DNA of 64,000 bases, taken from the NCBI GenBank assembly GCA_964016885.1, contig OZ024748.1, forward strand, positions 25,606,001 to 25,670,000. Reading direction: 5' to 3'. The DNA is from Eledone cirrhosa. Taxonomy: Eukaryota. The notes beneath the pieces were generated by a model that did not search any database, had not been told where the DNA came from, and saw only the letters and a program-made list of their open reading frames with translations. A program made the position numbers and the translations under genes. Shown one piece after another: positions 25,967 to 63,258 of the stretch (position 1 is its first letter; each line of letters begins with the position of its first letter).

Positions 25967-26068
25967 ATGTAAACTGGGATGATAGGTCAATCTGCCATCA
26001 TCTAACAAAGCCACATACTTTTTCTTCCATTCTTTATTCAAGCCATGGCTTCGTTTATATAAATAACC
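25967..26068 (-). CDS. AGAP1: AGAP exon, PH domain start ([34 protein letters not shown])
   Basis: cattcag / CAT|gtaagt, 102 nt, phase 0-0. Matches the AGAP motif '[11 protein letters not shown]...G.LTYHPSLH'. Confidence 0.97.
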
Positions 26069-26312: not shown

Positions 26313-27259
26313 ATCATCATCATCATCATCGTTTAACGTCCGTGTTCCACGCTTGCATGGGTTTGGACGGAGGGTTTTCCCACTTGAGGCAAGAGTGGTT
26401 ATCTTGCTCGCATAGGACTATCTGGCGGGTTTTCTACAGCTGGATGCCCTTCCTAACACCAACCACATTTACAGTGTGGGGCTGGGAGGTTTTTACCGTG
26501 TTGCCTACACGGCCACATTACAGCGTGAACTGTGTGTTTTTTTGACGTGACACCTACACGATCTCATTTGTTTCGGCCTGGATGTTGTGGCACCAACATA
26601 ACTTTACATTGAAAGGGGCGGTGTGGATGGGGTGGGGTGGGTGATACGGGGGTGTATTTTGTTAGAGATGCCTACTGACTGTAGTAGGTTTTACTTTGTA
26701 TTTAGGTAAGGCGGGTCTTCTCTATTACTGAGTACCGCCAAAGGTCTCGGTCCAGTGACATTGTCTTGGTGAGGTGTAAGTGTGTGAGGTCGGAATTTAT
26801 CAGCTCGTCCCAGGTTTTTCTGGGTCTGCCTATTCCGTGGCTACCGTCTATCTTTATTGCCCTGCACTTTGTTATACAGCTATCGTCCTTCATGCGCATC
26901 ACGTGACCATACCAACGTAGCCTTCTCTCGAGTAAACAACATCTGATCCCTCTTATTTCTAATTTTTTCCTTAGTTCGTTTATGCTTTGCCGTTCACGTA
27001 TATTACTATTACACATCCAGCGGAGCATGCAAGCTTCGTTTCTCTCTAGTCTGTGTATATCCTCTGCACACAATGCCCAGGTCTCACTGCCATGCAACAT
27101 TGCTGTTCGTATGCAGGCATCGTACAACCTGCCTTTCATTTTTAGGGAGAACCCTTTAGCGGCTAATAGTGGTATGAGCTCTCTGAACTTTTTCCACCCA
27201 GTTCTGACTCTAGCTACTGTACTTTCAGAGCACCCCCCCACTGCTGATTTTGTCACCCA
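26313..27259 (-). mobile_element. 3' ~0.95 kb copy of the same RTE family, inverted
   Basis: Translation nearly identical to the C-terminus of the 29643-31508 ORF; same 3' UTR and (GAT)n tail; inserted in (TA)n. Confidence 0.95.
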
Positions 27260-28995: not shown

Positions 28996-29636
28996 TTTAT
29001 ACTTCCACTGGACACCTACATGCATGTATCTATTTGTAGTTTTGTGTATGTGATTGTAGTTATGTATAACTCTGTGTGTGACACGTCTCTGTATCATTTC
29101 GTATATATATATATATATATATATGATATATGTGAGTGCGTATATGTATTTGTATATGTCTGTAAGTATGTCTATATGTTTTTATATATATGTGTGTGTG
29201 TCTCTGTATATTTGCGTATGCATATATGTATGTTTGTATATATACATATATATATATTTTACTTTTATCTGAATGTGTGTGTATATGTATGTACACGTCT
29301 TTTTCTATATTGCTACATATTTTTTATTTTTTATATATTATTTTTCTTACCCTTCTTTTCTTATGTATATTTCCCGTTATTTTTCCAGCCTCACTTCCAA
29401 TTTTTAACAGATTTTAAATCTCATTTCATATCTTTTATCCATAACATCTCTGACGACCGATCCAGGCATGTATTATTATCGTCTGTGATCCAGAAACCTT
29501 TGGTAATGGACTAGTTATATTTTGTGTTGTTCAATTTCTAATTAAATAGCTCTATTTTATAGATAGAGCATTCTTTTTTCCTTCGCTGTTCCTTCGTAAT
29601 TACCTACCTACACACATATATATATATATATATATA

Positions 29637-32207: not shown

Positions 32208-32276
32208 CTGTTTTATAGGTATAACTCGACCACTTCCTAGTTTTTCTGTTTCTAACTTTTTCTCATCGTCCTTTTT
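32208..32276 (-). CDS. AGAP1: AGAP exon preceding PH domain (KKDDEKKLETEKLGSGRVIPIKQ)
   Basis: tactacag / CAG|gtgaga, 69 nt, phase 0-0. Matches the AGAP motif 'GSGR.IPIKQ'. Confidence 0.95.
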
Positions 32277-33394: not shown

Positions 33395-34060
33395 GTCAGA
33401 TTTATTATAGTATCAAAATCAAGATAAATGTTAATCATTGTGGTATCAAGTTCAAGGTGAATGTCAGTCATTGTGGTATCAAGTTCAAGGTCAGACATTG
33501 TGGCACCGAGATGCAGGTCAGTCAGTGTGATATTAAGTTCAAGGTGAAGGTCAGTGTCATTTCATATCAAATTCAAAGTGAAGGTCAGTGTCATTGTGGT
33601 ATCAAGTTCAAGGTCAGATATTGTAGTATTGAGGTATCAGGTTCAAAGTGAAGATCAATCATTGTGGTATCAAGTTCAAGACCAGACCTTATGATGTCAA
33701 GGCCAGACTGCTATAAAGTTCAAGGTCAATCATTGTGGTATCAATTTCAAGATGATGGTTAGTCAGTGTGGTATTAAGTTCAAGGTGAAGGTCAGAGTCA
33801 GTTCATATCAAATTCACTGTCAAGGTCAGTGTGAAGGCCGGAGTCAAGTGTCAAGGTAAAGGTCAATGTCATTATGGTATCAAGTTCAAAGTAAAGGTTA
33901 ATGTGGTATCAAGTTTAAGATGAAGGCTAGACATTGTGGTATCAAAGTGAAGGTTAGAGTCATTGTACTATCAAGTTCAATGTGAAGGTCAGTGTCATTG
34001 TGGTATCAACTTCAAGGAGAGGAACATACTAACTGTGGCATCAGGGTGAAAGTCAGTGTA
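33395..34060. repeat. Degenerate minisatellite (core gtcattgtggtatcaagttcaaggtgaaggtca)
   Basis: Many diverged tandem units of variable length. Confidence 0.9.
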
Positions 34061-41051: not shown

Positions 41052-41138
41052 ATTAAAAAGATTTGATCTCCGCCGATTTTTCCTACTCTGTGTAGGCGTA
41101 CTGCTTGGTGTGGGTAAATCTTTTCCCTCCGGTCTGTC
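41052..41138 (-). CDS. AGAP1: AGAP linker exon variant D, canonical-like (DRPEGKDLPTPSSTPTQSRKNRRRSNLFN)
   Basis: tttccag / AAT|gtaagc, 87 nt, phase 0-0. Resembles the invertebrate centaurin-gamma linker 'PTPSSTP..SRK.RRRSNLF' as recalled. Confidence 0.9.
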
Positions 41139-42333
41139 CTGGAAACGTAGTATATGTTTTATAGGTTAGTTCAGACAGCAGAGCAATATAGCTGATCCTT
41201 AGCACCTCATATACATTTTTACACAGATTTGTGCAGATCACCAAGGATTAGTAAACATTAGTTATCTCTTAAATACCACTGTAGTGACTTCAACTGGGAT
41301 AGATAGTGAAACCAGTAGCAAGCATGCATTTCTTGAAAGATTGGAATAAAACTATAAAAAGGCCCAGAATTGAGTATAACACAATATCACATGTAATAAA
41401 CAATAGATAAATAAATACAAATACAATAGTCATAATAGTTATAAGCCATGCTGTTAGAAGACAATTTCAAATGTTCATGCAGCCATATTTATATGGAACA
41501 TCAAGCAGACTGGTCAAACATGCTACCATATATGTATAGACACACCAGCTGCCAGCATTTCAGAATATTTATTACAAAGTTAAAAGAAAGGTATCATTAA
41601 AGAAATTCACCTGAAATATTTATTCAACATGGATAACAAGAATATTTTTTATGAAAACTCAGAGCCAAATGACTGCAGAGTCTCTCAAATAAAACTGATG
41701 CAGAAAGATACAGGAATTTTGTAAATTTGTGATTTTCTGTTGATCAATGTTTGAAAATAGGAATTTATAACACAAAATATATTCAATATATTGATATAAT
41801 AATAGGTATGGATTCAAGGTTTTTAGCTTAGATTTTAAAGCATCAAACTAATAGTGGAAAAGAGAGAAAGAAAACAAAACACTTAAGTTGTTTGCATAAG
41901 TTATGTCTTAAGATAGATCAAGTAAACACTGATTTTATATTTTGTGTGTAAAACCAGAGAACTTTTAGCATTAAGAAAAATGTTAGGTTTATGGAGTAGA
42001 TAAAAATGAGGTTTTCTGATGAGCATACCTTTCTCAATGACATTAAAGGACATATATGGAGTGAAATAGCTTCAACTGGTTTCCACACACACACATACAC
42101 ATGCACACACATATACATGTACACAAAGATACTTGTTGTGCATGCAATAATTTGAAAATGTAAAAAGTAAAAACTGAATAGAAAAAACTGAATAATTGAT
42201 AGTCTTCAGTTTAAAACTGTTACAAACTATTTTCTTCATCTCTCAAAAGAATCAAGACAAAGGTAAAATACCCAGTCCATGGTGAAGTGGAAAAATGAAA
42301 TGTGAAAGATTAACGTGTAAACTATATATATAT

Positions 42334-42394
<61 letters not shown>

Positions 42395-43201
42395 ATGTGC
42401 ATCATACAATAATAATAAATTTGAAAGACAAGTTATGCATCTAATGAGTTACTTGGAAAAGAAAAAAAAATGTATATTTATAGCAGAGTATTGTCAAATT
42501 ACACGATTGTCAGATCACACAATATATTTGGATGATTACATTATGTAAATATAAGTTTATGTTCTAGAAGTTTGATAGCTAATTAGTGAGCCAGCCTAGT
42601 AATATTTCATAAATTTGAAAGATGTTACCTTTTAATATATAATGAATGAATGTATATATAATTGTTGTCCAATAGGAAGGACTAAATTATAAAAATTCAA
42701 ACCACAAACTAAACTGGAAATATAACATCATAAAAGCAATAATTTGTCATCCTTAAATAAATAAGAGTTGGTTGGCTGAGTTGAATAAGTCTGGAGTATT
42801 GAAAACTGAAGGATAATGTAAAGCTGCAAAAGTAGAAGTTCATATTTTGTAAATATCAAATATTTCAGAAAACTATTAATAAAAAAAATAGATAAATAAA
42901 TAAATAAAAATAAGAGTATACAAATGGAAAAAAAATGTTGAATTTCTTATATCGTTTTGTTTATATAGGTAAACAGCACCCCTATCACTAAATTACTAAT
43001 GAAATTTTAAAAATTAAAAAACTTTTTTTTATTCTCAGAACCTAGACATTATAGCAATATCCAAATATTTTACTAGGTTAACCTGAAAGCATATTTTGTA
43101 GACATTTTCTAAAGTAATATTTTCATTTTTTTTATAAATTAAAAAAAATATATATTTTGATACTTTTTAGAAATTGGCTTTTGTCAGAAATATTTTTATA
43201 T

Positions 43202-43420
43202 TTAACTCTTAACATCCTGTACCACATGAAACCTCATGTACAACAAGGCATTCTTGAAAACTACAAAACAGCATTATGACTGCATTGCATGAACAATTGA
43301 AGCCTTTGGTTTACTGAAAATTTTCAAAACAATCTGTCGCCTAAGACACAATAAACATTTGAATTAACAAACTAGTTTTTAAACATTTTCTGCTCAATCA
43401 TTATAGGATGTTAAAATTTA
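43202..43420. mobile_element. ~215-bp MITE with TTAA-CTCTTAACATCCTGTA termini
   Basis: Imperfect TIRs. Family copies at 1629-2500 (nested and interrupted), 20948-21210, 25100-25327 and 60544-60760. Confidence 0.75.
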
Positions 43421-44119
43421 AAGTAATAATTCTTTTTTATAAGTTTTTTACAGCTTTTAGAAATGGACTTTTGTCAAAAATATTTTAATATTTAAAGAAA
43501 TGAGTTTAAAATATATATAATCTTATATAAAACCAATAAAACTAGATAATTTATATATTTGGATTGTTGCTATGTAAAACATATTTAATTTTTAATTATA
43601 AAAGACTGGCTCTGAGAAGGAAAAAAAAACTTTTAATTTTTAATTAAGTGAAGAAAAGAACAAATTAGGTGCATTTTTCAATGTCTACAACAATGCAGAG
43701 TGGTCCCTTGTCAATTAAAATGGCGTTGCAAGTGTCTGCATATTCCAGAATAAAATCAAATCTAAGATCTAGCATAACGAAATATAAAAATTTTCATTGT
43801 GAAAGATTTTCATTGTGAAAGATTTTCATAACCAATAAACAGGTCAAGGCATCAAATTCAGTTTCTTTATTCTTCCTACAATTTTGATTAACAGATATCA
43901 AATAAAAAAAAATAATAAAAAAAATAAAAAAAAGGAAACTCCTTGAATGCCTGATAATCTACAAGTGTATGAAGATGTGGCATTTACAACTAAATTTCCT
44001 ACAATGTATTTCTGATAAACATCATATCTAATTCTGAACCACAGCAAAAGATGAATAAATGAAGGTAAATATTACTAAGATTGAAGCTATTTGAAATGGA
44101 ATATCACCATTGGTATTAG

Positions 44120-44224
44120 TGTTGCTTCGATAAGTCGGCAGATGATTAGTATCAACCATATCGGCCATTAAAACAATGCTGATCAATCAGTAATCGGCCA
44201 AATTACTTATCAGTGCATCCCTTA
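44120..44224. mobile_element. Possible hAT-type non-autonomous DNA transposon end
   Basis: Repeated atcggc subterminal motifs ending tatcagtgcatccct. Confidence 0.45.
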
Positions 44225-45173
44225 GGGATATATTTGTAAAACTATTCTAAAAACAAACTGTATGTTTACATTTTAATGTTTTTAGCAATGTCAACTTCAT
44301 AAAAATGAAAAGATCGTATGATAATAAAGACAGAGCTGGCAGGCAGAACTGACAGACAGCTAGCTAATTTGGCGGAAAGATAATAACAATTTCCTACATA
44401 TGAGAAAAAGAAAATTCAGATATCTAGTTAGGGGGAAATATATGATATGTCAACAAGAAAATAATGAGAAAAAGGAAGTAAAGAGAATAAGTTAGGCAAA
44501 AGTAATAACTTTAGAGAGCAGAGTAATTTAATATTCAAAGAGAAAAATGAGCTGAAAAAAAGGGAGAAAAAAGAACAACTATTCTACCCAATTGTCAAAG
44601 TCAAACTCAACATGTATGGATATGAAATAAGATTCACTTTAAGAGAATATGTTTAGATGGGGAAAATTACTAACACAAATGTTTTGTTTCTCAATCTTTA
44701 ACAAAACTTGAATCTACTTGTGAGGAACGTGTGCAAAGTTAGTAATTCAAAGATGTTAAATTCCTTGAAATTAAATTAGTTAGTTCAGTCTATACCATTT
44801 TCTCAATGAATTTTGCTTCATGTTGACCACGACTAAAGCAGTCAAGGTTGGTATTTAAGCAGTGTTTCTCTGAAGCCAGTTTTTTTAAAATAGTTATTAT
44901 AGTTACCTCCCTTTACACTCTCTAAAAGTTATATTTATTTACAGTTAAATTCTAAATTACCTGCCCTTGAAGAACTCATGTAATTTTTAAAAACCTCAAA
45001 TCATTCTGTGGATGTAGCCATTTTCTTTTTATATAACAAGCTAAATTAGTTGGAGTTTATAACCCAACGAAACTTAAGTACCTGTATATGTCACTGTTGT
45101 AACTAATTATACTTAACTCGGTCCTATGGACTGAGTGCTCTTACCCGTGGATATTTCTACCAAACATATACTA

Positions 45174-45232
<59 letters not shown>

Positions 45233-45894
45233 TAACTTTTCTGCTCGACTCCTCACATTGTCTATGCAGTCTGTACAAAGCCCTTTCAAAATCAAAATCA
45301 AAATATTTGTTGCCACTCTGAAACAACAAATTCTTTCTATTTTATCTTTTGGTGCTGATCGAGGCCATTCCAGATTTATCGATTCATGTTTCTTTGGGGC
45401 AATGATGATAAAATGATATATATATGCCCTACCCATGCTAATGTGGAAAATGGACACTAAACAATGATAATTATATATATATATATAGTAATAATAATAA
45501 TAAATGTGAAGACTAAAATCCGAAGAGGGCTCAATAAGGATAAATATATATCAATATATATATAAAGAGAAAAGAGGGGAAAATATTAAAGCCTAAATAA
45601 AAAGTCACTGCAGTGGTTTATGATGAAGGATCAATTAAACATATTCAAAGGAAAATGTGATATTTTAATAAATTTATATACAGATGATGATTATATTCTG
45701 ATCTTTATTACCATATTTCTAATGAAAGGCACTGCCTATGATTTTCCAACCATTTTGAAAATAATCATAAATCTGGAGGAATTCAATAATATAACTAACT
45801 TTCTTATGATTAAACTGGCATTAGGAACATAAATATTTTTATATAAAATTATGAAGGGCAGTTTATAGTTTTATAGATAAAAGTAAACACTTTA

Positions 45895-46141
45895 AAATAA
45901 ACAGTTATGTCTCATAGAACCTGGGATAATTTATATACAGTTTTGTTCCATAGAACCTGGGATAGTTTATATACAGTTATGTTCCACATAGAACCTGGAT
46001 AGTTTATAAACAGTTATGTTCCATAGAACCTGGGATAGTTTATAAACAGTTTTGTTCTATAGAACCTGGGATAGTTTATAAACAGTTTTGTTCTATAGAA
46101 CCTGGGATAGTTTATAAACAGTTTTCTATCATAAAACCTGG
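45895..46141. repeat. 36-bp minisatellite, about 6-7 units
   Basis: Unit atagaacctgggatagtttataaacagttttgttcy; no spacers. Confidence 0.95.
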
Positions 46142-47205
46142 TGCAGCTTCAAGTAGTTTTGAATCAAAATGACTGACACCAGTGATGCACAGAGACTTTC
46201 AGAAGATAGTCTACAAAATTCACAAGGAAAAAATACATAGATCACCCAATGTAAATCTACTTTTAATTGCATTATGCAACATAGTAGGACAAAGATATTT
46301 CAATTAAGAAGTTACCTAGGTAATTGTATAAGATACTGATTTAGATTTTAAACAGTCTCATGTAAAATAGTGACTTTCTTGGTCTCATGGAACTCACTGT
46401 AGATCACCAAAGTTTGGCCATGCTGTGCATTAGAGTTTTATACAATTAGTTAGCCATAGTTAAAGGGTTGTATTGAAAATTCTTAATATTAAAAAATGTT
46501 AAATAAAGAAAGTGAAATATTCTTCATAATTTTGCTTTTAACTTTCCTCTTTCTGCATTGGTATGCATGTGTACATGTGCTTGTACACAAATGCATGTAT
46601 GCATTCATGCAATTGTATTGTATGCCCTTACATATGATATCTAAATTACTAATTGCTATTTATGTCGATACAATCTGTAATTGGTGCAGGAAGAAATGAA
46701 TTTACCAATGAAAGAATTAATGCCTTTATATTTTTTCTGAAATGAAATTCTAATAATTTTGGGGTAAAATGAGAAAAGGAATCAAGTCAATAATATAATG
46801 ATGATGGCAGAGCAATGTTCAGGGTTGAGCTAGCTCATGCAAAGGTTTTGTTTTGAGGCAGCACACACTCACAAGCAGACACTTAGTTGACATGGTTCAC
46901 TCCTGATGCAATTTGTTTTGTTGCTCTTCTGAGCCACAATGATTCAACTTGAGCCTCTAATGAGGAGGGATGATAAAGAGATGTTTTGACAGGGGGCGCT
47001 GTTTACTAATCAGCCTACATGCACAATTTTTCAACAGCACGTTTATTGGTATTGATGATTGGTCTAAGCAAGTCTCTACCATGGACAGGGATGGACAATT
47101 ACTTGGGTGGCTATTGGTCGAACAAGTGGCAATATCAAGAGGCAAGGTTTTTGTGACTGCATTAACAGACATATGATGACCAACAGATGGAGGAGAGACA
47201 CTTAC

Positions 47206-47307
47206 TATGACCAGGCTGGAGCGGACTTGTGCCATTCTAGTCAGAAGAGGCGTGAATGGACTACTGTTGTGTATACTGAAATCCATCATAAACTTATCCA
47301 TTTTACC
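47206..47307 (-). CDS. AGAP1: AGAP linker exon variant C (GKMDKFMMDFSIHNSSPFTPLLTRMAQVRSSLVI)
   Basis: ctgac branch-like site, cctttgtag acceptor, ATA|gtaagt donor, 102 nt, phase 0-0. TP, R, RS and L sit at the same distance from the donor as in variant D. Confidence 0.7.
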
Positions 47308-47838
47308 CTACAAAGGATGAGCAGTCAGATTCATGAAACAACATGCTAACAACTAAAATCGAAGTAGAATTGTATATAAGCATTAATTCACTAGCAACAG
47401 ACCACAACAGAATTGAATATCAATATTAACTTCTGCTTTTCTTGTTCAACTGAAATGTAGATGGATTAGAATAAAGAAAAAAAAAAATGAAAGAAAAAAA
47501 AACAAAGAAAAACGTAGCAACTATAAAAATGGCAAAATGAATAAAATAGTTTGAAGAAAATAAATTAAAAAATTTTTTTTAGATAGATTGATACAATAAG
47601 AACTCTAAAGAGAAGAGCTACTTAACATGTATTTTATAATATATTAAAATATCTAAATATTTAATCATTTAATCAATGATCGTGGCATATCATTTCAGCT
47701 GTCAAGCTGAATTGAAGAGAGGGAATTTGATATGTTCAAAAGGGTATTGACAATCATGATTATCTCTTTCTTGTTTTGTTGGACACCTTGCACCATTATA
47801 TGAATCTCTCCATCCCACCGTCGCAGTAATGAAATGAT

Positions 47839-47879
<41 letters not shown>

Positions 47880-48289
47880 CACAGATATATATGTGTATGT
47901 GTGTGAGTGGAAATCATATTATATCTGTTTCGTAAACATCTATCTATTCTGTCTACAAAAATATAACCTGTAGTTGAACCAGGCGAGAGATGGAGCAGCA
48001 AAAGGTAAAGAGCGTTTCACTAGGTTAATATTTCTTAACTAGTCTTCAAGTATCATCTATTTCACCACTTAACAACACTGGCTATCTCTCTTATGAAAAC
48101 TAAACAATTAGTGATGGTGGGATGGAGAGATTTATATAATGGCGCAAGGTGTCCAAATGGAACTTTGTATATACATACACGAATATGTTTATATACACAT
48201 AGACATATACATACACACACATAATAAAGTGTGTATATATATATATATATATATATGGTTATGCACACTAAATTCTTCATAGAATTCAT

Positions 48290-49090
48290 TGCTGGCTGTC
48301 ACATTGCTAACTATGCCTCTATACATCGTTTCTATGGCCCTCACAAGTCCTTTGGCTATTTTAATGCATTTCCCTTGCACAACACTTTCTCTATTCTGTC
48401 CACTGGGACATCAGGTTGGCTTGTGTCTGGCGTTCTACACATCAAAGGATGTTCACTGACACAGTTTGGTCTTACGTCATTGGGGTAGCAATGATTCAGC
48501 CTTTCTCATATTTTTGTTAACGCACACACCATATACATAAAAGCATACTTATCACAGGAAAAAAAACAACTATTGTTACTAATCTGCTTAACTCTAGTTT
48601 CCTTAGCAACCAAAAGATTACAGAGTATACAACCCCCGTCAAACACCTTCTCCAGATCATTGGAGGCTGAGTATAGGGGACTTATTCTTAGTTGAGTACT
48701 TCAGTGAATGTCTCGGAAGGAAAATGGCACAAAGCTAAACTGCATCGCATCAAAGTTAATTCTGTTTCTAATCAATTTTCATTGTGAGTGACTAACCCTT
48801 GTTCTATTCTGCTAGACATATTAATCCTTTCAGTAACATCCGCTGATCAATCAGCTGCCTTCTCTGTCGTTATGTTCTTAATTACACTTGTTATCATAAT
48901 ACTGTAAACTGGTCTCTCTGCTAAGTCTATTTGGGGTAGACCTTTTGTCCCCCATGAATCCTCTTTATTAAAAAACCACTTGTAATAAGAACTTTCAAAC
49001 TCCTTTCTTTTGTTGTCAATAAAACTAAGTGTATCGCTATGGACCCCTATAAAACTTCCCTCCAATAATGTTGTAACTTTCTCTGTCACT
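48290..49090 (-). mobile_element. Old RTE remnants, discontinuous
   Basis: Peptides LVRAIETMY...EEFSV and 'LPQID...P.....I...IK....KAA' resemble the 29643 ORF. Confidence 0.6.
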
Positions 49091-49174
49091 ACCTACCAAC
49101 TGAGAATGCTGAGAATGAAAGGTATTCCCTTTTCTTTTAGCTGGCAGACCTTTTTTTTTATTTTTGGTAACATG

Positions 49175-49360
49175 AAAACCACCACACCACTGGCAAAAAG
49201 GATCTATCAGCTAAAAAAAGGGGAATACCTCATGACATCACATGGAAAGTGCTCGAAAAGTCAACACCGCATAAAAAATGCTCGCTCTGCCTAAGTGAGA
49301 AATTCACCGGATATTTACCTAAACTCAAAGACAGAAATCTTCAGGTCATGTTTACACCAA
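49175..49360 (+). mobile_element. Degenerate Penelope-like GIY-YIG C-terminal remnant
   Basis: Frameshifted peptides T.LAKRIYQLK and ITWKVLEKS...KCSLCLSEK. Confidence 0.6.
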
Positions 49361-50840
49361 AAATCCCAATTTTTATCAAACTAGAAGCCCACACCGCAAG
49401 ACACCATCACACGAGACCTCCTGGACACTACTTATCTCTAGTACCCCTCAACAAGCAAACCACACACATACACAGATTGGCGAATTGTTGAAAGAGACAT
49501 TAACATTACAGCATCACACTGCAACCAACAACCACACAAACATGCAACCTTATACACTTCAGAACTTAAAAATTGGTGAAACACTAATAAAGACACAAAT
49601 TCGAGTGAATACGCGTGTTTGTGCATCTATATCTATATATGTCTGTGTGTGTGTGTGTATATGAATACATAACTACACATACAGTTGTGTGCAAAGTTAT
49701 ACATGCATGAGCACACGTTTGCACACTAATCCATGTCTACCCTTTAAATCGCAATAATTTCTTATGTGTGTGTCCATTTATATGCAACTTCTTAACTTAA
49801 TCCTTTTAGCAGTCAACGAAGTACCCATAATTTCATGAGTCTCCTCCCTTTACTTGGTGGACAGAATAGCCCCAGAAATTTTTTATAAATTGGTACAAAG
49901 ACAGATTTCAAACCAGGGTTGTCTCCCTTGTTTCAAATATAAGTCTCTACCATTTGGAGAAAGTTTTAGTCGAAGGACAACAGCTCTTATTCATATTTTT
50001 GTCCACTCGCTTGAAGGAAAGGCCAGTATAAAAGTGCCTCCACCATTATACAGTGCTAGCCATGACTGGACCCCAAAACCAATGGTAGCACATACATGTT
50101 AAGTGTATGAAACTTTGTTTATACGAAATAAGCTCTCTTCCGACAGATTGAACACTGTTTTCCTTGATCTACAGAGTTCTACCAACATGTGTATATATAT
50201 ATAAAATTAAACTCAACAAAGATTCAACAAACTGGGAACTTGCTGAAGAAGTAATCTAAGATAATAATTTGACATACCACAATTTCAATGGCAAAAAATA
50301 AATTATGTAAAGAATAATTACAGAAAGAAAATATAAGAATAAAATAAATTTTTTTAAAAATCAAATGAACTAATTTAATGAATGTGAATTTATAAATGAC
50401 AAATTTTACTAGAGGCATGGATTATTATATAATTATTATTATTAACCTGTGCAAAAGACTGGCTTACATAGTCCATAGCTGCCATGCTCTAATAATAATG
50501 AAAAGATATTTTTTAAATCTAGTCTGATGCTTTCCAGTTTATATATATTAAAAACAAGAGAAGGGTGGACTGGAAACATTCTTTAAAGTTTTAATGTTGC
50601 GAAAACACTATACGTATTTCAATTGCTTAGTTTAATTTATTGCATCATGGTTTACTTCACAACATTAAAAGTATGTTTCCAAATAAATAACTCCATTCTT
50701 GCACCAGCCACTGGATACCACATCTACGATGGATGACTTACATAATGTCAAATGCTTTAATTTAATGCATCATCGTTTACTAGCTGAATTGACCAGTTGT
50801 ACCCACTGGTAAACCACGCAACATAAATGGTGTATGTATA

Positions 50841-50874
<34 letters not shown>

Positions 50875-53800
50875 CAGAACTAATAAAAGAGTACAAAATA
50901 TGAGCATGAGAGAAAATCAAAACTTATGAGTCTAAAGATTTTGTCAAAAAGACAATTTTAGACATTAAAGTCAATCAACATTTTGATTTTTAGTTTATAG
51001 AAGGTACCCCAATTATGATTTGATAAGGTGGAAAACAATTAAATGTAGATCTCTGAAAAACCAGTAGTCTATGATGAAGTCGACAGAGGACATAAAAGAT
51101 ATAGACTATACAAGACAAATCATAAACACTATAACATATTTTACAAAACTTATACAGATTGACTTTAGTTTGTTTAGAAAATATACATTCACATCTTCAT
51201 TAAATCTGATAGATTAGTTAATAATAAAAATGAAGGCAGGCGCAGGAATAAAAATATGCTCTCATAACTTTTAAACTTAAATATTCTTTTCAAATATCTT
51301 TAAAATTCAACCAAAAATGAAAAACAAAAGCAAAAATTACCAAAATATTTAAATGAAAATTCTATTTACAGTGTATATAGTTGATGAAAATATTTACAGC
51401 AGTAGGAGAGACAAAGGGGTGAATTGTACAGGGATGTATTGTGCTGTTAGTAAATTATTCAGGAGGAATTCTCCAGATATCCCTTACAAGATATTGAAAT
51501 TATAACTTCCTATTATCCATATGGTTTTTGTTCTTTTTTTCTTTTATAATAATCAACTATAGTCTAAGAGGTTATTATTCCACCTAAATAACAATTTACT
51601 ACAGGCCAAATTTATGTAAAACTTGTCTGTATGCAATAGTCTTTAAATTATCTGCTTATATTTATCAAAATAAGTTGAGGAATACTGTAGAGACAAAGGA
51701 GATAACTGAAATCTATTTTTTTGTTGTTTTATTATCATTGTTAAACAGCTTATATTAACATTTTAGCTCACACAATGTAAATAAAATTGTCAGTGAAGAA
51801 AGTAAAAGAAACATTTTAGGGGTCAGTGAGAAACGAATGAAATGTAGGCACAAAATATTGTTGAACATCAATAGGTAATTCATATTTTCTTTAAAGATTT
51901 AAAAAAAATCTAATAAAGACAGGTGTATACTTCATGTAGATATGTATCTAAAAACACGCGCGCACGAACATAAATTTGTAGATGTATAAGTGGAAAATAT
52001 TTAATTGAAATGGGGAAAATCCCACAATAAAACTGAAAGAAAAGGAACACAAAGTGAAACCATGATCTTGTTATGTAAAAAAAAAAAAAAAAATTAGTTA
52101 CCAAATATTGAATATTCTGATATATTAGTTACTATATATGATATATGTCAATGGTAGAGAGTTGGAAATAAATACAGTGAAATGATACACAGATTTATTT
52201 TAGGTATTACTTAGTGAAGGAGGAAGAAACAGGAAGGTAACAGTAAAGGGTTGATTGAATACTTCTTACATTGGCAACACAGGGACCTTCATGCAACCAT
52301 CATCAATAAAGGTAACTAGGAGTAAAAACAGGGTGAAGAAAACCTAGAATGCAATAAGATAAGTTTTACAAACAGGGTGAATTAGAGAAGGCTACCTTTG
52401 TTGATGTATTTCCATTCTTATTGGAATTGAAATATAGTATTAAAAAAAAAAATTAAATGATCATGTGAAAAAATGTAACCTTTATATGTCCTAATGTTTA
52501 AAAATACTTTATATTATCTTGAGGGAATGGAAGAGAAAATATTTTGCTTTACACATTCTACTCAGTAGAAAACTTATACCAATACACTGTTAAACTGAAT
52601 GTCGGTGTACAAAATTTATTCCAAACTTCATATAAAATATTCAAATGCCAGGATGAAAAAAATCCATGCTAAAATATTCTATTTTAAACACAATAAAAAT
52701 CTGAAAATTCAAATAAAATATCTTACAGTATATTAACATAGAGTAAGTATATTTGAAATGGTATATGTTATAAAAATTAAATAATGATGAGAAAAAACTC
52801 ATGATAAATGTAATGTTAAGATTTTTCGAACTAATATGACTTCAGCAACACTTTTTTCCAAGCTATATCTAAGGAAAGCAACACATGCAGAATATTTAAG
52901 GAACAACCTTTGCATAAAAAGCAGTAATAATTCCATGTCAATTCCATTAACTATAAAATAAAGTTATTCATCAACTGAAAAGGATTAACCATCAATAACT
53001 GATGCCAGTTTTAGCCACAATAAGTATTGCCTAAGAATGAAGATTGTGGAAACAAGTTCTAAAGCTGGATCTTTAACATATGAGGAAATATAGTTCAGCC
53101 ATATAAAGATCAATGTATCAATGTAGCGTTGCAGAGTCTATAATGGTCTCCATGATTTAAAAAAAAGAAAAAAATGCTAAAAAGTACCAATTCCAGTTTA
53201 TTAGAAAACTTTGATATGAATTAGGGTTTAAGTGCTATTATAACAATACACTAATTAACAGAGTATTTGTCAACCTAATCGCAGGGTTTCATTTAATAAA
53301 GTGCGTCAAACATGTAATTTATGTCATGGTGTATGCATATATATTATATATTTCCATGCTAATGAGGACCTGGAGACAATACCAGAATGTCTTCTTTTCT
53401 TTTTTTTGTTACCTATTATCACCAAAGAGTTGCAATGGCCATCCAAAAGGGTAGCCCCATCATATACTAGCATTATTTATCGTCTACTAAACTAATTAGT
53501 AGTCACATATCAATGATTCAACTCTTCAATAATAATAAGTTGAATTATATTAATATATGTATAATATATTTTAATCATATGATGTTTTAGAAAAATTGCA
53601 GAAAAGTTCAAATTAAGTTAAATGAGGAGTGCCATAATAAAGTTTACGGAACTAAACAAATGAATTCAATGGATGAAGTATGTAGGAATCAAAACACAGA
53701 AGGAAAAATATCAAGTTCTTAATTAAAAAAAGGTAAAGAATAAAGAAAATTATATTGGAGAGAAAGAAATAAGTTAATGAGAAAAGTAAATCCCTCAATG

Positions 53801-54411
53801 TCAAGGGTGGTTGTCATATTGACATGATGAAATAAAAGAATGAAAGGTATTTAATATCAAAAATAAATAATCTAGTTTTAGTTGTTGTTGTTGTTGTTGT
53901 TGTTTTAAGTAGCAAATTTTGATTTAGTATTGAAGGAACAAGAAAAATGAAAACAGCATTAAAATGCTAATGAATCATCTGAACAAACTGTTTATAAACA
54001 ATTAATAAAACTTGCAAGATAGTTAATAAAGTATATTTTCTCCTTTAATGTAGCAAATGAATACTAGTAATATTTATTAAGTAATGATGGTAAAACCACA
54101 ATGACAAAGGGGGTATAGTCTTTGTGAGATGTGAAATAAAAGGGTGTTATGAAAATCTGACCAGAATGTCTTCTGGAAAAGCAAGTTTGAAGTATAAAAT
54201 ATTGAATAAAAATGTAAAAGGAATTATCAATAAAGTATAACATGGGGATTATATATATATATATATAATATATATATATATAATATAAACCAACTGTAGA
54301 GAAGGATCCCATTTTGAATCTGCTATGGATTTAAATAGTGCATTGTTGTGTGAAGACAAAGAGGAATTAGTACAGAATAGGATGATGACTAGCTTTCTAA
54401 GTGGGACTTAC

Positions 54412-54498
54412 AGTCAAAGAGTTAGATTTGATTTTGTTTTTCCAACCGAGAATAGGAGTGCTTGATGGAGTGGGTGGCTGCCTTAAGTCACTTGCACC
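54412..54498 (-). CDS. AGAP1: AGAP linker exon variant B (GASDLRQPPTPSSTPILGWKNKIKSNSLT)
   Basis: Strong U-tract + ctgcag, ACT|gtaagt, 87 nt (same length as variant D). 11 of 29 residues identical to D without gaps. Confidence 0.87.
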
Positions 54499-54523
54499 CT
54501 GCAGAAACAAAAATAAAACAAAG

Positions 54524-54529
54524 CATGCA
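54524..54529 (-). promoter_or_regulatory. UGCAUG motif 26 nt upstream of variant B
   Basis: Abuts the polypyrimidine tract. Confidence 0.55.
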
Positions 54530-54737
54530 CCATGAACAGCAAAAAATGACGAATATGAAAGATGGGAGAAAGAAAAGAAAAGGGTGGGATGCAGGTAGGA
54601 AGAAAAAACAATGAGTTACATGAATCATGGATTACTGCAATGGTGGGTTTGAGAAAAAAAAAAATAAAAATAAAAATAAGGTGCTGAGATTAAATTTGAA
54701 TTATGTCTGATTTCTTCAGCTTATTCAAAACTTTTCT

Positions 54738-54768
<31 letters not shown>

Positions 54769-56816
54769 GAAGTATTTACAAAATATCTGCTTCAAAATAC
54801 AATGTGAACTAATTTGATAAAGTATTTCAATTTACAGCAAGCAGCATCTCACCTTTAATGTAAACCATCTAAATCTTAAGAATAAGGAAACAAATGAGAA
54901 ATATACTTTTTATTTTATTTTTTGGTTTTCTTTTACTAATACTCAAAATCAGTTAAGGTAAAATGTAAAATGAAAATATTTTGAAATTTTTCAATCTATG
55001 AAACAGATGTTATGGGGGGAAATGATATGGGTTGAACACCATAATAAAAACAGATGTTTGTTTGATATTAAGCTTTCATTCAGGTTTTATTAAGTTCCGG
55101 AAAACTTAGACAAGAGCTGAAGCAAAAGTCAAATCACCCATGTTTCTTTTGTGTCTCTTTTTTATTAAAATAATTGAAAATTTAAAGTTAGATTTGATTA
55201 ATAGTAAACGATGACACTAAATTATTTAAAACTATATAACTTATTTATAAGTTAATTACAGGTATGCTGGAAAGTGTCATTTGTTGAAAGTTTCAAAAAC
55301 AGCTCAGAATATAATCTTATTTTATTAAATATCAAAGCCACCTTTACTGCATCACTGGAAATAAGTGTTTTGTAAGCAAAAACAACATTCTATTAAGTTA
55401 TGTTGCTGTTACAGTAATAATAATAAGACAGTCATTCTCAGATTAAATTGAATTTTGTAATATTAGCACACAGTTCATTGTGCTCACTAATTTCAAATAA
55501 AATACACCTTGGACTCTCAACAAAATTGATTTTATGTATCACATTATCTCAATAATATTTTGACTATTATGCCCACTGACAGATATGATTTGATTATTGT
55601 TATTTATGAAATAGAAATGTAACATATTTTCTTATGGGCTGAAACAGGCCAAAGAGTCAGTAAAATGGGGGAATATTTACAAGATTAAATTCAAACATTG
55701 AATATTAGTTTTTTAAATGCCAGCATGCATATTTTCACACAGGTATTTAGGAGGTAGAATTTAGATGGGAGTGTTTAGGTGGTGATGTTTAATCATTTGG
55801 TTTTTAAATTTTGCTTCTATTTACTATGTTAACGGGAGTGTGATGGTTTTTGAACATTTAGATACTGGAATATGATTGAAGCAAGTGATTTTAAAGCTGG
55901 AAAACTTTCTCACTGCAAGCCATTAAATGAAAGTGGCAACTATTTCTAGCTGAGGTTGATTCAGACAAGTATTGTTATACACTATGATAAGAAATACAAT
56001 AAATGTAGCATAGCCTTAACTCTTGACCACATGATCACATTTGAGTAGCTTAACTCCTTAACATCTCATCCATTGTGCTTCTCTACATAAACTATAATAT
56101 TTATTAAATTTAAGACAATTTTCAAGCTTTCAATCTATTGTTATCATCATCTTCATGGCATCTAGAGAAGTTGTCACATCTTTGACACAACTGAAGAGTC
56201 CTCTTATCCTTTTTTGGCATGGTTTCTACAGCTGGACGTCCTTACTATCACCAACCACCTTACAAGGTATGTTTTTTCATGGCACCAACACGAGAGAGGT
56301 CTTTGTGTCATGGCTGAGGAGGCATTTCTTAGAACAGCAATATTTCCTAAGACAATGTTTAGTTTGTATCAAAGACAAATGACACATTTTAAAGAAACTG
56401 TTAAATTACTTTGAATAAATACATTTAAAGAATTATAAATCCCCCTGCTGTATGTAAATATATAAGTGTAAGCTGTAAATGGTTTGGTTTTATGGAATGA
56501 AGCAGATAAGAGATAAATTTTCCATTGGCAAGGAACCCCATGTTTCACAGGTAAGATGCCCCCTCTCACCAAAACTAAGTGATCTGAGGGTAACAAAGTG
56601 GTTTACTAACACAACACAATGAAATATCTACAGCAGATCTGAGATTATGATATATAGAAGAGGTGGTAAAGTAAACATTGCAAGGTCAAGGTCAATATTT
56701 GCTTCTTTTTGATGATTAGATGCCACACCAACTTCATGATTAACTAGGTTAACAGCTACTTCTATAACAATTGCCATCTTTATATGTGTGTGTGTGTGTG
56801 TGTGTGATATATATAT

Positions 56817-57046
56817 ATAAATGTAATCTGAGTTTTTCGAATATTAATAATAACATTTGATTCGTTTGCAATTTTGCAAACAAGCCTCAATTTTATAGCC
56901 ATGTCAGTTCTGTTCACATGCCAACATAAGAGCAAGAATGAAGTGTTCATTCTCCTGACATGGAAAATAAAATTGAGGCTTGTTTGCAAAATTGCAAACG
57001 AATCGAATGTTATTATTAATATTCGAAAAACTCAGATTACATTTAT
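56817..57046. repeat. Fold-back inverted repeat, ~90-bp arms and 47-nt loop
   Basis: 56817-56907 is the reverse complement of 56955-57046 with few mismatches; flanked by (TA)n/(TG)n. Confidence 0.95.
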
Positions 57047-57078
57047 TGTATTCAGCTATGTAGAGCGAAATTTTCTTT

Positions 57079-57109
<31 letters not shown>

Positions 57110-57121
57110 AATAAATATATG

Positions 57122-57153
<32 letters not shown>

Positions 57154-58141
57154 TGTATGTAAATGCTAAATATTCCACCCAAGCCAGCATAAATGAGATC
57201 AATGATTAAAATGATATGTAGCTTTATACTTGGTGCATAAATACATTCTAATGTGTAATATAATGAATCAAATAAGACATTTTCTTCTTATTTCTTGAGT
57301 GACTATTTCTGGAAATGAACTAGATAAAACACATTGGCTAAAAATGAGATTGATAGTATTACAACATATATATAAAAAGAAGAAAAATAATCTTCAGACA
57401 AATAAAGAAAGAATTTGGAGTCCATGCTGAAGTTATCAATATTTGATCTCGTGTTAAGAGTTGTTTTAAAATGAATTGTGTATCTATGTCTGTTACAAGA
57501 TAATAACACTGATTCAACATCTCAGGCAAACAAATTTTTATATCAAGATAATATTGAATTTCATTTTTGTTTGTAAATTGAAAATAAAATGTTGTTTCTA
57601 CAGTGAGTAAAACAATTTCAAAACCATGTTCATATTTTTTTTAAAAATGAACTTCACATTAAATAAAACAAATATAAATTGTTGTTGGTATTGTTGTCTT
57701 TGTTATTATTAATAACAACTGTATTGTCATTATTCTAAGGAACAATTTTAAAAAAACAGTACTGTGCAAGATAAAATTCCTTTTCAGTTTGAAATTAAGA
57801 TTGATAAAATTGACTCCACTTTACTCTTGTTGTTTTGCATAAACGTAAGAAATCATTATTAGTATTCAATGCACTGGGTAATTGCTGGCCTTGTGCCTAA
57901 AGTAGAAACAATTATTAGTATTCAAAGTGTCTTATATACTTAGTATACTACTATGTATGGACGTCTATGTGTGATTTCACTGTATTGATAGTACTTCATG
58001 TAATGTATGTGTTTCTTGTAAGTTATAAGCCACAGAAGTTTGGTTACCATGCATGTATTTGCTTCTATCATTTCCAGTGCACCTATTAATGCTGGAATTG
58101 CTTCTGTTTTTAATCACTAGATTCTGCATATCTGTTTCAAG

Positions 58142-58178
<37 letters not shown>

Positions 58179-58842
58179 AACAAGAAGTCAACAGGTTAAA
58201 ATTAACTTTCATTATTCATAGTCGCTGTTATATATATTTGAGTGATAACCATTATGCAACAGCTATGACCTCATCAGACAGCTAGAATTTGAACAGAAAA
58301 ACAGAAAAACATAACGATGGAATAAAGCTTACTTCTGTTATTTCAATTTTTTTATATGCTCAGCCCTGAAATTTAGTGTTGTTTTCTCAAGGCACCAATA
58401 TATATATATATATATATATATTGGAGTTGTATTTGTCTAGCAAGTAATTGATAATTACTGGATAGATGAGTAATTTTAGCCATTAAAACAAACTGATAAC
58501 TATATAAATAATCAATTTATTGTCTGGTGTTAAAATTTTAGTTTTAATTTTAGTTTTAGCCATGCATATATAATCATCATCATCACCGCATTGGTGCAGG
58601 CATGGCTTTGTAGTATCAGGTTCCATCCCACTGTGTGGCACTTTAGACTTTAGTCTTACATTGATCAATGTCTTCTGAGAGAATTTGGTAGATGGAAACT
58701 GTTAAAGAAGTTGATTTATTTATTTGTGTGAGTGTGCACATGTGGATGTGTATGCGTGTGTGTGTCTGCGCATGTGCATGCACTGGTCTTGGCATGGTAC
58801 AAACCTGGAAAGAACAAACTAAATACTGTAAAGTATTTTCAT

Positions 58843-58997
58843 CAACACTTCACCACTACCACACCATTCAACACGCCACCACTACCATACCACCCAACAC
58901 TTTACCACTACCACACCATCCAACACTTTACCACTACCACACTATTCAACACTTTACCACTACCATCCAACACTTTACCACTCCAATAAACACTTTA
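58843..58997. repeat. ~26-bp minisatellite (caacactttaccactaccacaccatc)
   Basis: About 5-6 tandem diverged units. Confidence 0.9.
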
Positions 58998-59421
58998 ACA
59001 TTGTCATTCAAACTACTTTTACTATCAAATATGATGTAGATGATGAATGATAATAATTATGGGAATATATACAGATACAAGTTTGTTGGAATTGAAGTTA
59101 TTTTGTGTAAACCTCAAATTTATCAGCTGAAAAAGCAATATCACATATTTACCAAGATAAACATTTACAGAAAATTATTCTTAATTCTCCCAGATATACC
59201 CAAATCAATGCCAGAAATAACTATTAATGTTTTCATTACTATATGTCTAATAAAAGTCACTCTCTATGGTTTGATGGAAGGTGTTCAGATAAATAGAAGC
59301 ATTTAAAACAAATAGTTTTGTATTACAGAACCAGAAGCCGTTTTAGGCAGTTTGGTGTGAAAAGGGTTAAATGACATAAACCAGAGTTTGGATCTATTTT
59401 GAAATATTATTTAGTAATGAA

Positions 59422-59740
59422 AATAATTGTTTCTACTTTTGGTACAAGGCCAGCAATTATCCCAGTGTATTACTGGTACTTTATTTTATCGACCCCATAA
59501 GGATGAAAGGCAAAGTTAACCTCGGTGGGATTTGAACTGAGACCATAAAGGGCCGTAACTCTTTGCTGCAAAACATGGCGTCAGACCTTCTACCGATACT
59601 GCCAATCCACCACAGTAATAATTGTTTCTACTTTTGGCACAAGGCCAGCAATTACCCAGTGCATTACATGTACTTTATTTTATGGACCCCGTAAGGATGA
59701 AAGGCAAAGTTAACCTTGGCGGGATTTGAACTCAGATCAT
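59422..59740 (-). mobile_element. Two tandem copies of a Meta-domain-like SINE
   Basis: Shared core aactttgcctttcatccttacggggtcgataaaataaagtaccag. Other copies at about 1100-1500 (x2), 7030-7310, 18495-18770, 24860-24930, 38905-39025, 57865-57915 and 59940-60220. The Meta-domain assignment is from recalled similarity. Confidence 0.8.
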
Positions 59741-62700
59741 TTAGTAATGAAAATAATGATAACTTGGAATATGAAAGTTTTATTTCAGATGAACACATCA
59801 CATTGAAGCATGGATACATAATGTCATTAATAGCCAAGTATAGCCACTAGAATCCATAGAGCATAACAATGATTTATCACATGGCATATTAATATAACAA
59901 CCATCATATTTTGCATTATGTATATGTATACATGGTATAGTCGGAGAATTGGCAGTCGTTAGAACATCAGATAGAATTTTTTGCTGTATTCATTACAGCT
60001 CTCTGCTCTCAGTTTAAATCCTGCTGAGGTCAACTTTGCCTTTCATCCACTTGAGGTCAATAAAAAAAAAAGTACCAGTCTAGTACTGGGGTTAATTCTT
60101 CCTCTATATCTCTTTCTGACTTCCATTCTACTGTACTAAAGCCTGGAGAGGGATGGGGTCTGCCAGGTTTAAAAATGCCCTAGAAATGCTGTATGACAAT
60201 ACGGCACCTCTGCAACTCCCATGCACACATACATGGTATATATGTGTATACATACACATCTACACATGAATAAATATCAAATTCCTGTCATTCTCCCAGA
60301 AATGGCCATTAAACTATATTAATTCTATGTAGAAAATTCTCTATGGTTATCAGACAGGATACAGTGTTAATGGAACTTTTTCGACATATTTCACATATAG
60401 AACAATGTATGTATATGACAAGACCAATTATTTCATGTAAACCTTTCGTTACTGCCTCAAATAATCACGGTCTTACCCCCCTGCCTGGAATTAATGGCAA
60501 TATTGACATCTCATTATAATGCTAGTGATAACTCATGAGTTCATTAACTCTGAAAGTAGCACATGGTACTGAATTGGTAAGATATTCTTAAAAAGTACAA
60601 AACAGCTCTATCACTGCATCACAGTAGATATTATAATTTTTACTTTAGTTTACTACAAATTTTTACAATAATCTGTCCACTAGTAAAGATGCTCTAAGTA
60701 TCTGAATTAACAAACCTGTTTTTAGATATTTTCTGTTAAATCATTACAGGATATTAAGTACATTGTCCAACATTCTATAAAATGAAATTTGTGATCGCTG
60801 AATTTTTAAAAATATATTTTTCCAAAACTTTTATATAACATTTTACACTTTAAACAAATGGATTCCAGCTTCGCATTCAGTAGCAGTGACTCCAAATTTG
60901 GAGTATTTTTGAAAGAAGAAGGCAGCAGTGGTAACAAATATTAAAGGCAAGACGCATTGTCATGTAGAGGAATTCAATTTCTGATTGTAATATTAACTCT
61001 ATCAGCGATTTTGAAACAAATATATTCTAGAAATATGATGGAATGTAAATTTATGGAATATATATATATATCTCCCTTAGTAATTTTTTTTAAAGAAACC
61101 AAGTACAACCATAGCCTTGTCAATGACTTGAAACCAATCATTTCATTTATTTTTTCCTATTGCAATATTCCAGACAATAACTGCAGAAACAAATTATTAC
61201 ATAGAAAAATTAAGAGGGCAGATTAGGGTCCAATACATGCTTGGATGAATTTCAATCATTTCTTTTGCAATAAATATATTAATGGACAATTGGAAGATAT
61301 CCAGAGAACTCTTTTGCAAACCCTACATTTCCAATATGGCGACCAAAACACAGTTTTTAAAGTTGTGTCAATATGAGATCCCATCACATACAAGGAAGAA
61401 TATCATGAGCCCTTATTTAAAGTTGTGTCAATATTTACATGTATAAGACACCAGCAGTTACCCCAACATGTGGGGAAAGAATACTGGGCATTGTACAAAA
61501 GACATTTAAGTTCTATTATCAAACTGAAAAACCCCCAAAAAACTGTTGATTAATGAAGAGATGATTAGATATAAGCGCTGATTATGTTTCCAACAATATA
61601 TGGATGAGAAATTTGTGAGGGTACTTTTGTGGTTTTAAACTTTATATCTAACGTATATATTGAGAGCTGTATATAAATAAAAAGTCCCATTGTTGTAATT
61701 TCATACAAACAGGATAAAAAATGAATTTCACTACTATTATCCTCTGCTCACCAGTTGAAGTGATTCCATCTATAATGTTATGTTTAGACAGTATGTATGA
61801 GTAGGCAATCACACATTCATCTAGTACAACTTAATAATGATAATGTCCTAGTTGGTTGTAGGTGAAACATAATGCCATGTATTAATATTATAGCTTAATT
61901 GGTTTGTTATATATAATTAGGAAGTGATAAAGTACATTTTTAGAAAATAGGAATTTTGGAGGGAACCAAATACATTTTTCTCTTTATTTTTTATTTGTTG
62001 TTTTAGAATGGAGAACTTATAAACAGAAACAGGGCAGAGAAATTTGAATATTTTAGTTTTCAGAAGAGCTGGGCTGCTGACAATGAGGTTCTATAATTTT
62101 GGCAGCTCCTTTTATTGACATATCAGGTGATGCCATCATCCACGGAAATGTGACAATGAGGTTCTTATCATTGTAGCAACTTGCTTTACCAACATATCAG
62201 GTGATGCTTGGAAGGGTGCTTCGTCATTGAGCCTTGCCATCACCCTCGGAAATGCTGAAAGTGTGTTGGCTTGCCTCACAAAATATTAGAGGGTAAACTC
62301 CAGCACCCATTGTTGTGCAGTGTGATTGAGTGTGAATATCTTTTACCACTTTTTTTCTCTTTTTTTTTAAAATAAAAAATAAAAATTGTATTTACTTGTA
62401 TGCAAATTCACATGAAATAAATAATGATTTCTTTCTAGTGGTTTAAAAGAAGGAAAACTTTGATGAAGTTTTTGAAATCTTGAAAAATTAGTGGAACAAA
62501 GACAGTACATAGAATGTTTTAGATTTTAAATGTTGAATGTTAAATTTGATATTTACTGATGAGCTGTGAGTTGGAATGTAGGGAAATTCCTTTAAATGTT
62601 TTGTATTTCAAGAAAACAATTTATTTACCTAAGATAAAAAATAAATAATTCTGAAAAAATAAATAAAATTGGGCTACATTGAGTGATATTTCTCACATCA

Positions 62701-63130
62701 CAGATGAATTCAGTTTAACTTTGCCACAATTATTTTTAGTGTGTGTGTGTGGGGGGGGCAATGTATGCATTACACACACATTAAATAAATCAGGAATCTA
62801 TAATCAACTGGTTTAATTTATAATATTAATGTGTGTGTGTGTGTGTTTACACACACACACATATAAAAGGTGATGCTCTAATATGGACACAGGCAAAAGA
62901 CTATCCGCACATACAGACACACATTTCAGAATGATGATGATCAATGAATTAGTTTTACTTGGAACTGTGAATTCGAAATCAAAAAGATGTTATGGACATC
63001 AGTAGCTGTTTTGTTTATATTGATGACCGGCGTAAAGGTTTTTTTAAAAAAGAGAAATAAATTGATATTTAGATTATATTAAAAGTAAATTAAGACAGAA
63101 GATATGTGGGAGAGAGAGAGATAGACTTAC

Positions 63131-63229
63131 ACTGAAGGAGTTGGACTTGTGCACAGAAGGAGTTCGTTTGTTCTTGCGGCCAGCCACTGGTGTTGAACCA
63201 GGCAAAACCCTGAAATCCAACTTAGAATC
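63131..63229 (-). CDS. AGAP1: AGAP linker exon variant A (DSKLDFRVLPGSTPVAGRKNKRTPSVHKSNSFS)
   Basis: tttattttag / AGT|gtaagt, 99 nt, phase 0-0. Shares the P.STP...RKNK and KSNS motifs with variants B and D. Confidence 0.85.
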
Positions 63230-63245: not shown

Positions 63246-63258
63246 CATGCAGCATGCA
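63246..63258 (-). promoter_or_regulatory. Tandem UGCAUG (Rbfox-type) motifs upstream of variant A acceptor
   Basis: TGCATG at 63246-63251 and 63253-63258, with a third at 63343-63348. Confidence 0.6.

Follow-up and report, generated by a model that had tools for sequence, protein, structure and literature searches.

Homologous tandem exons in the linker of an octopus AGAP gene are independently skippable cassettes

In a 64,000-nucleotide (nt) stretch of the Eledone cirrhosa genome (assembly GCA_964016885.1, contig OZ024748.1, positions 25,606,001 to 25,670,000, here called the window; G000:C8:25606001-25670000 in our coordinates), the minus strand encodes an AGAP/centaurin-gamma gene with four homologous exons, A to D, in the linker between its GTPase and PH domains. 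Gene models and transcript contigs of related species show that these exons are independently skippable, frame-neutral cassettes, which supply zero to four units to each transcript. Homology and distribution indicate that A, B and C are tandem copies of an ancestral D, made early in lophotrochozoan history. We estimate a probability of about 0.75 for the full proposal, in which D was copied early in lophotrochozoans, the copies serve as combinatorial cassettes under Rbfox-type control, and the outcome is a tuning of motif number.

The four exons are combinable cassettes

The gene was recognized by its domains, a Ras-like GTPase, a split PH, an ArfGAP and ankyrin repeats, in that order. An earlier sequence-only reading of the window had made the same gene call and had located the four exons correctly: all lie on the minus strand, begin with G after an AG acceptor, end at a GTAAG donor, are open and have phase 0-0. 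Mapping of an annotated Octopus protein onto the window and 200 kilobases (kb) of adjoining genome set the array between a common upstream exon, an optional microexon and the exon at 32276. Exon A (63131..63229, 99 nt, 33 codons), the first of the array, encodes a basic Thr-Pro unit and is followed by B (54412..54498, 87 nt, 29 codons), by C (47206..47307, 102 nt, 34 codons), the most diverged unit, and by D (41052..41138, 87 nt, 29 codons), the putative ancestral unit that stands single in other animals; splice sites and frame define all four. Identity to P0023, a protein annotated in another Octopus species, is 31/33 residues in A, 29/29 in B, 34/34 in C and 29/29 in D. The introns measure 8632 nt (A-B), 7104 nt (B-C) and 6067 nt (C-D), in keeping with the 6-9 kb spacing described before, and a further 8775 nt separate D from the common downstream exon (32208..32276, minus strand), which starts at 32276 and leads into the PH domain. 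Protein mapping and a domain match place the first PH-domain exon at 25967..26068 on the same strand. The nearest exons past the window end, both on the minus strand, are an optional and unrelated 27-nt microexon (G000:C8:25671346-25671372; extended coordinates 65372-65346) and then, 5' of it and of A, the common upstream exon (G000:C8:25674742-25674864; 68864-68742). The microexon has two TGC close to its acceptor and is a candidate neural microexon. No fifth paralogous exon was found in the window or the 200 kb past its end, so the earlier suspicion of more variants beyond position 64000 did not hold over that distance.

Units were called with exon profiles in annotated and contig proteins, taken from a search with the first PH exon (the best 120 of 412 proteins) plus cluster look-ups. 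The contig proteins are intron-free frames on Logan contigs of 1.5-4.4 kb; they are independent of gene models and, being free of introns, presumably derive from transcripts. At least two units occur together in 29/43 annotated Octopus proteins, 55/86 bivalve proteins and 9/12 contig proteins, exactly one unit in 12/43, 22/86 and 3/12, and none in 2/43, 9/86 and 0/12, respectively. Of 16 possible combinations, 10 appear in Octopus models, 13 in bivalve models and 6 in contig proteins (for example A+D in P0026, A+B+D in P0286, A+C+D in P0088 and A+B+C+D in P0085), and all six variant-to-variant junctions are present in each of the three sets. In the nemertean Lineus, 15 members seen of a 30-member cluster divide into 11 with A+B+D, three with B+D and one with A+B. 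None of the exons, not even D, is present in every isoform, which rules out a constitutive repeat expansion, and in bivalve models each of A-D is joined directly to the common upstream and downstream exons.

These patterns bear on the central claim of the sequence-only reading, that a regulated mechanism selects one of A-D per transcript. The exons do look the part: they are homologous, tandem, in the same phase and frame and of similar length, a criterion by which mutually exclusive exons are recognized, and single-unit isoforms are found in all three sets. Against this stand the six variant-variant junctions in models and contig proteins and the zero-unit isoforms in models of related species. 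An excerpt of PMC5740500 defines mutual exclusion by the absence of reads joining members, and the earlier reading had itself named several variants in one transcript as the observation that would speak against it, which is what the counts above record. It had also remarked that neither frame nor steric constraints would enforce exclusivity, and this is correct: exon lengths are divisible by three, the introns span 6.1-8.6 kb and all are GT-AG, leaving no steric, frame or U2/U12 constraint. A crude search for docking-selector pairing found no shared element; the longest complementary matches, of 10-15 nt, are AT-rich and differ from exon to exon. A one-per-transcript choice is refuted in related species, and we consider it very improbable here. 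Still less credible is a reading of A, B and C as dead or neutral copies that enter transcripts through splicing noise; a disordered linker could tolerate frame-neutral inserts, but each exon is recognizably conserved, with a sequence of its own and in the same order, among molluscan classes and in other phyla, as described below, and is nearly unchanged between Octopus species. Their presence in isoforms of related species agrees with the earlier view of them as live, alternatively spliced exons. A closer competitor, which we think unlikely without dismissing it, is ordered splicing, in which A would act as a gate in cephalopods, with B and C entering only after A, and a few programmed tissue forms would result, such as D, A+D and A+B+C+D. 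Indeed, no junction from the upstream exon to B or to C appears in the 43 Octopus models or the 12 contig proteins, none of which includes B or C without A, whereas bivalve models have them in 9/86 and 6/86, respectively, and the most conserved GCAUG element belongs to A. The missing junctions may, however, reflect shallow sampling, the Octopus models amount to about two independent annotations, and bivalves and Lineus keep B while skipping A.

Set against independent use of the cassettes in this octopus is the origin of the counts. They come from models and contigs of related species. The annotated isoforms were modelled automatically, and some full combinations may have been chained from short junctions; the O. 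vulgaris models, which carry O. sinensis names, were probably transferred, hence not independent; and the contigs give presence and not frequency, such that multi-exon forms could be minor. Eighteen sequencing runs, guessed to be RNA from other organisms, contain 0.10-0.20 of the words of an 801-base stretch around D, an overlap that is no evidence in itself.

Homology and distribution of the units

Exons B and D share 45/87 bases and 11/29 residues, the latter reproducing the identity reported before. A scan of 264 kb gave 44 candidate phase-0 exons; pairwise scores within the set of A, B and D are 47-55, and among the 30 candidates listed the unrelated ones reach at most 29. Taken alone, octopus C is weak: 52, 184 and 83 of 2000 shuffles reach its score against A, B and D. 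With five or six orthologues added per exon, followed by 1000 column shuffles, the observed score was reached in 0/1000 for A-B, A-D, B-D and B-C, in 3/1000 for C-D and in 13/1000 for A-C. All six pairs thus stand above column shuffles, which upholds the proposed homology of A-D. The shared unit consists of a Thr-Pro site, among the nearly invariant columns, then, 3-5 residues further, a basic cluster, and finally a terminal Ser preceded by a basic residue. Each unit has two Ser/Thr-Pro sites; basic residues number seven in A and in D and four in B and in C. With the A unit of the annelid Paralvinella, and both A and B at the metagenome locus L041, visibly D-like, the common origin is plain.

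The array had been taken for a lineage-specific cassette, a view that orthologues in oysters, freshwater mussels, the gastropod Elysia, Lineus and Paralvinella overturn. In oysters and freshwater mussels all four exons stand in the octopus order, together with extra microexons; those of oysters lie after A and after B and differ from the octopus 27-nt microexon. Elysia has A, B and C, and Lineus has A, B and D, with A or D skipped in 4/15 of the members seen. Paralvinella has A, C (37.7 bits to the C profile) and D, and its model P0308 holds, at residues ~744-886, two weaker Thr-Pro basic units between A and C; from this single model, annelids may hold five units. B orthologues are found in bivalves, Elysia, Lineus and locus L038. 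A search of metagenome contigs with a DNA pattern taken from where A ends gave 20 matches, of which 18 are true A exons in AGAP genes of animals, all of phase 0-0 and many followed by B-type and D-type exons; the other two, L022 and L040, were chance matches, dropped before counting. Loci L023-L037 belong to a single animal group, whose AGAP genes are diverged and compact: the three unit exons (99-102, 120 and 90 nt) fit within 1-3 kb, and the D-type exon lacks the usual terminal serine motif.

In the wider family, 39 of 150 representatives carry one D-type unit, 3 an A unit (2 of them molluscs) and 108, which are partial or diverged proteins, none above threshold. A single unit is found in insects, Limulus, a mite, a copepod, Priapulus, nematodes, Clonorchis, Ciona, a rodent and a sea anemone, and D is the best profile for the single units of Limulus, Aedes, Priapulus, Clonorchis, Cricetulus and Helobdella, the last known from one model that may be incomplete. 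For most animals sampled, then, the earlier statement that AGAP proteins carry the motif once is accurate, with the proviso that the outgroup records are single models that may hide optional exons. Against the one unit of the sampled arthropod, nematode, flatworm, priapulid, chordate and cnidarian AGAPs, molluscs have four and the nemertean three, and the one annelid model has at least three plus the two weaker units. The array occurs in molluscs, a nemertean and an annelid and D alone in the outgroups, and most simply D was duplicated in an ancestor early in lophotrochozoan evolution; the outgroups suggest the direction from D to A, B and C. Molluscs, annelids and nemerteans split more than 500 million years ago.

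GCATG elements at the acceptors

Just 5' of the acceptor of exon A, we noticed two copies of TGCATG (63246..63258, minus strand); another TGCATG (54524..54529) precedes the acceptor of B, and a GCATG (47342..47346) that of C, all on the same strand. GCATG thus lies in the last 60 nt before all three of A (twice), B and C, and before 0/20 other acceptors of the gene, against a background of 4-5%. Since this signal was noticed after the fact, we tested it at acceptors from other animals. The 18 metagenome loci collapsed to 14 distinct A acceptors after removal of duplicates, and GCATG lies in the last 60 nt before 13 of these 14, 12 times as TGCATG, although 11 of the 14 come from one group of close relatives, such that by lineage the count is 3/4 besides the window. 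The background for these loci is 9.5%, and 2/23 of their constitutive acceptors carry the motif. A conserved (U)GCAUG, one criterion for an Rbfox-regulated exon, is therefore found at A; at B it occurs here and in L038 only, and at C it is seen in this window.

Rbfox bound upstream of an exon usually represses it. UGCAUG is given as the Rbfox motif in PMC12149502, and for short exons a section of a review reports enhancement from upstream Rbfox (PMC12221596). A literature search on Rbfox in bilaterians returned no match. Several results count against Rbfox-type control of the array, beginning with the after-the-fact discovery of the signal and the narrow sampling of A acceptors already mentioned. 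Locus L041 has no GCATG upstream of A, and one lies 13 nt after the donor instead. Before B, the motif is found at 1/12 other acceptors (L038 yes, 11 no), a rough count, as three of the B exons were scored at an inner acceptor. A search of the octopus genome for an Rbfox gene with a single Pfam model, Fox-1_C (PF12414), gave no match, which is not evidence of absence.

A second candidate signal did not carry over to other loci. UGC lies near the acceptor of 5/5 optional exons and of 1/18 others in the octopus gene, a pattern that could point to SRRM4/eMIC control; it is present at 16/23 constitutive acceptors of the other loci as well, and the pattern did not hold there. Directly after the donor of A, a CT-rich tract (63130-63108, minus strand) is probably common to squid, where the tail of a complementary DNA (cDNA) encodes a matching Ser-Leu repeat; we take it to be a possible PTB-type element.

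Possible roles and known relatives

In the mechanism that we propose, a single D exon, encoding the Thr-Pro site, basic cluster and terminal Ser of the AGAP linker, would have been copied in tandem to yield A, B and C, and the copies would be used as independent frame-neutral cassettes, giving zero to four units per transcript. Inclusion of A, and in molluscs probably of B and C too, would be set by an Rbfox-type factor acting on the acceptor-adjacent GCAUG; the motif is present, and the factor and its direction of action are our suggestion. The likely purpose would be to adjust how many phosphorylatable basic motifs, and of which kind, act on nuclear import or membrane binding of AGAP, as a CRAG mutant and general motif rules suggest. 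In the predicted model of P0023, almost all linker residues from 252 to 501 have a predicted local distance difference test score (pLDDT) below 50, and there is no secondary structure. The linker is thus predicted to be disordered, which would allow units to be added freely.

CRAG, the short neuronal splice form of AGAP3, loses nuclear entry upon mutation of KR342-343, and its GTPase-deficient mutant is S114N, according to PMC2063670. KR342-343 lies 228 residues past S114, which we take to be the P-loop serine, and in 11/18 vertebrate-type AGAPs the spacing from this serine to the KR of the D-type cluster is 227-229 residues, the others differing by indels. This matching offset indicates that the basic cluster of D corresponds to the tested nuclear localization signal (NLS) of CRAG. 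We therefore regard nuclear import as probably the best-anchored output, with membrane binding and phospho-docking as its rivals. Three facts sit uneasily with an import role: C lacks much of its basic cluster, the match to the CRAG NLS comes from the offset and not from the mouse CRAG sequence itself, and full-length AGAP3, with the same NLS, is reported in an excerpt of PMC6934726 not to be nuclear.

Instead of being NLSs, the units may serve in a phospho-dependent way as docking sites or degradation signals, or form polybasic patches that bind the membrane next to the PH domain, a tentative alternative that we think less likely than not. Kinase and degron consensus rules underlie the docking and degradation variant. 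In its favor are the two Ser/Thr-Pro sites of each unit, the near invariance of Thr-Pro, the conserved terminal Ser after a basic residue and the same report on full-length AGAP3. The sole experiment found on the motif, however, is the CRAG NLS mutant, and the two kinds of role need not exclude each other.

The likeness to CRAG may extend to a short isoform. From the donor of A, the octopus frame reads on for 18 codons and a stop (63074..63130, minus strand), a candidate end of a short CRAG-like form. The 'centaurin gamma homolog' of the squid Idiosepius, P0285 (BAJ83608.1), has a GTPase domain only, and its last 16 residues are read from the intron after A; the contig protein P0161 ends at the same place. 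A squid clone of that name, obtained by rapid amplification of cDNA ends, is expressed in brain and optic lobes according to PMC3141435, and is probably the same record as BAJ83608.1. Vertebrate CRAG-type proteins likewise end just after their single unit. The ending after A may be a convergent short nuclear form, or else partly spliced RNA primed in the intron, where A-runs after A could prime cDNA. No further short form ending after A was found among 52 candidates. In the octopus intron the first ATTAAA lies at +314 and the first AATAAA at +506, positions that are uninformative given 2.6 such hexamers per kb in these introns. That the array is an Rbfox-gated dial of nuclear access in lophotrochozoans, with A doubling as the end of a short nervous-system isoform of GTPase plus NLS in independent parallel to CRAG, strikes us as doubtful, more so than either the docking or the gate model.

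Among known systems, AGAP1-3 and CenG1A have the same Ras-like, split PH, ArfGAP and ankyrin domains, and the D unit is the family's linker motif. CRAG ends after this motif as P0285 ends after A; it does so through a dedicated terminal exon (as described in part of bioRxiv 10.1101/2024.10.10.617460), whereas the squid form, known from cDNA only, runs into the intron after a duplicated unit. The array resembles Dscam and Mhc in its tandem, homologous, same-phase exons of similar length and differs from them in that the AGAP exons join each other, are all skippable and encode disordered motifs rather than parts of folded domains. The variable exons of CD44 and repeat exon 10 of tau are optional exons that alter repeat or motif number. 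NCoR2/SMRT is a case of motif-dosage splicing (PMC4554918). All three share with the octopus gene optional exons that alter the number of short motifs or repeats in a flexible region; the motif and protein are different, and in AGAP every motif copy sits on a separate duplicated exon that has been retained in several phyla.

Elsewhere in the gene, the split PH domain has an alternative donor (21947-21932, minus strand) that adds 5 codons and an alternative acceptor (7996-7951, minus strand) that adds 15, both used in Octopus isoforms; Lineus isoforms vary in the same region. A 652-codon open frame at 29550-31508 (plus strand) resembles, as judged by eye, the reverse transcriptase of a long interspersed nuclear element (LINE). 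An inverted partial copy, 96% identical, lies ~3.7 kb off in the same intron (26702-27259, minus strand), and the pair could form double-stranded RNA in the pre-mRNA. Tandem repeats occupy 33410-34017, in the intron that follows D (~18 copies of a 33-35-nt unit), and 45897-46141, in the C-D intron (a 36-nt unit, 6.8 copies, 90% identity).

The exons are already in automatic RefSeq/UniRef annotation. Among the top 10-20 open-access matches of each search, we found no paper on their common origin from a motif exon, their age before the split of the phyla or a conserved Rbfox-type element. The array is a clear counter-example to equating homologous, same-phase tandem exons with mutual exclusivity. 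The gene is expressed in squid brain and optic lobes (PMC3141435). Its vertebrate relatives are tied to neuronal function. If the units are indeed phospho-regulated import signals, the array would be an ancient and testable case of splicing setting the copy number of a motif.

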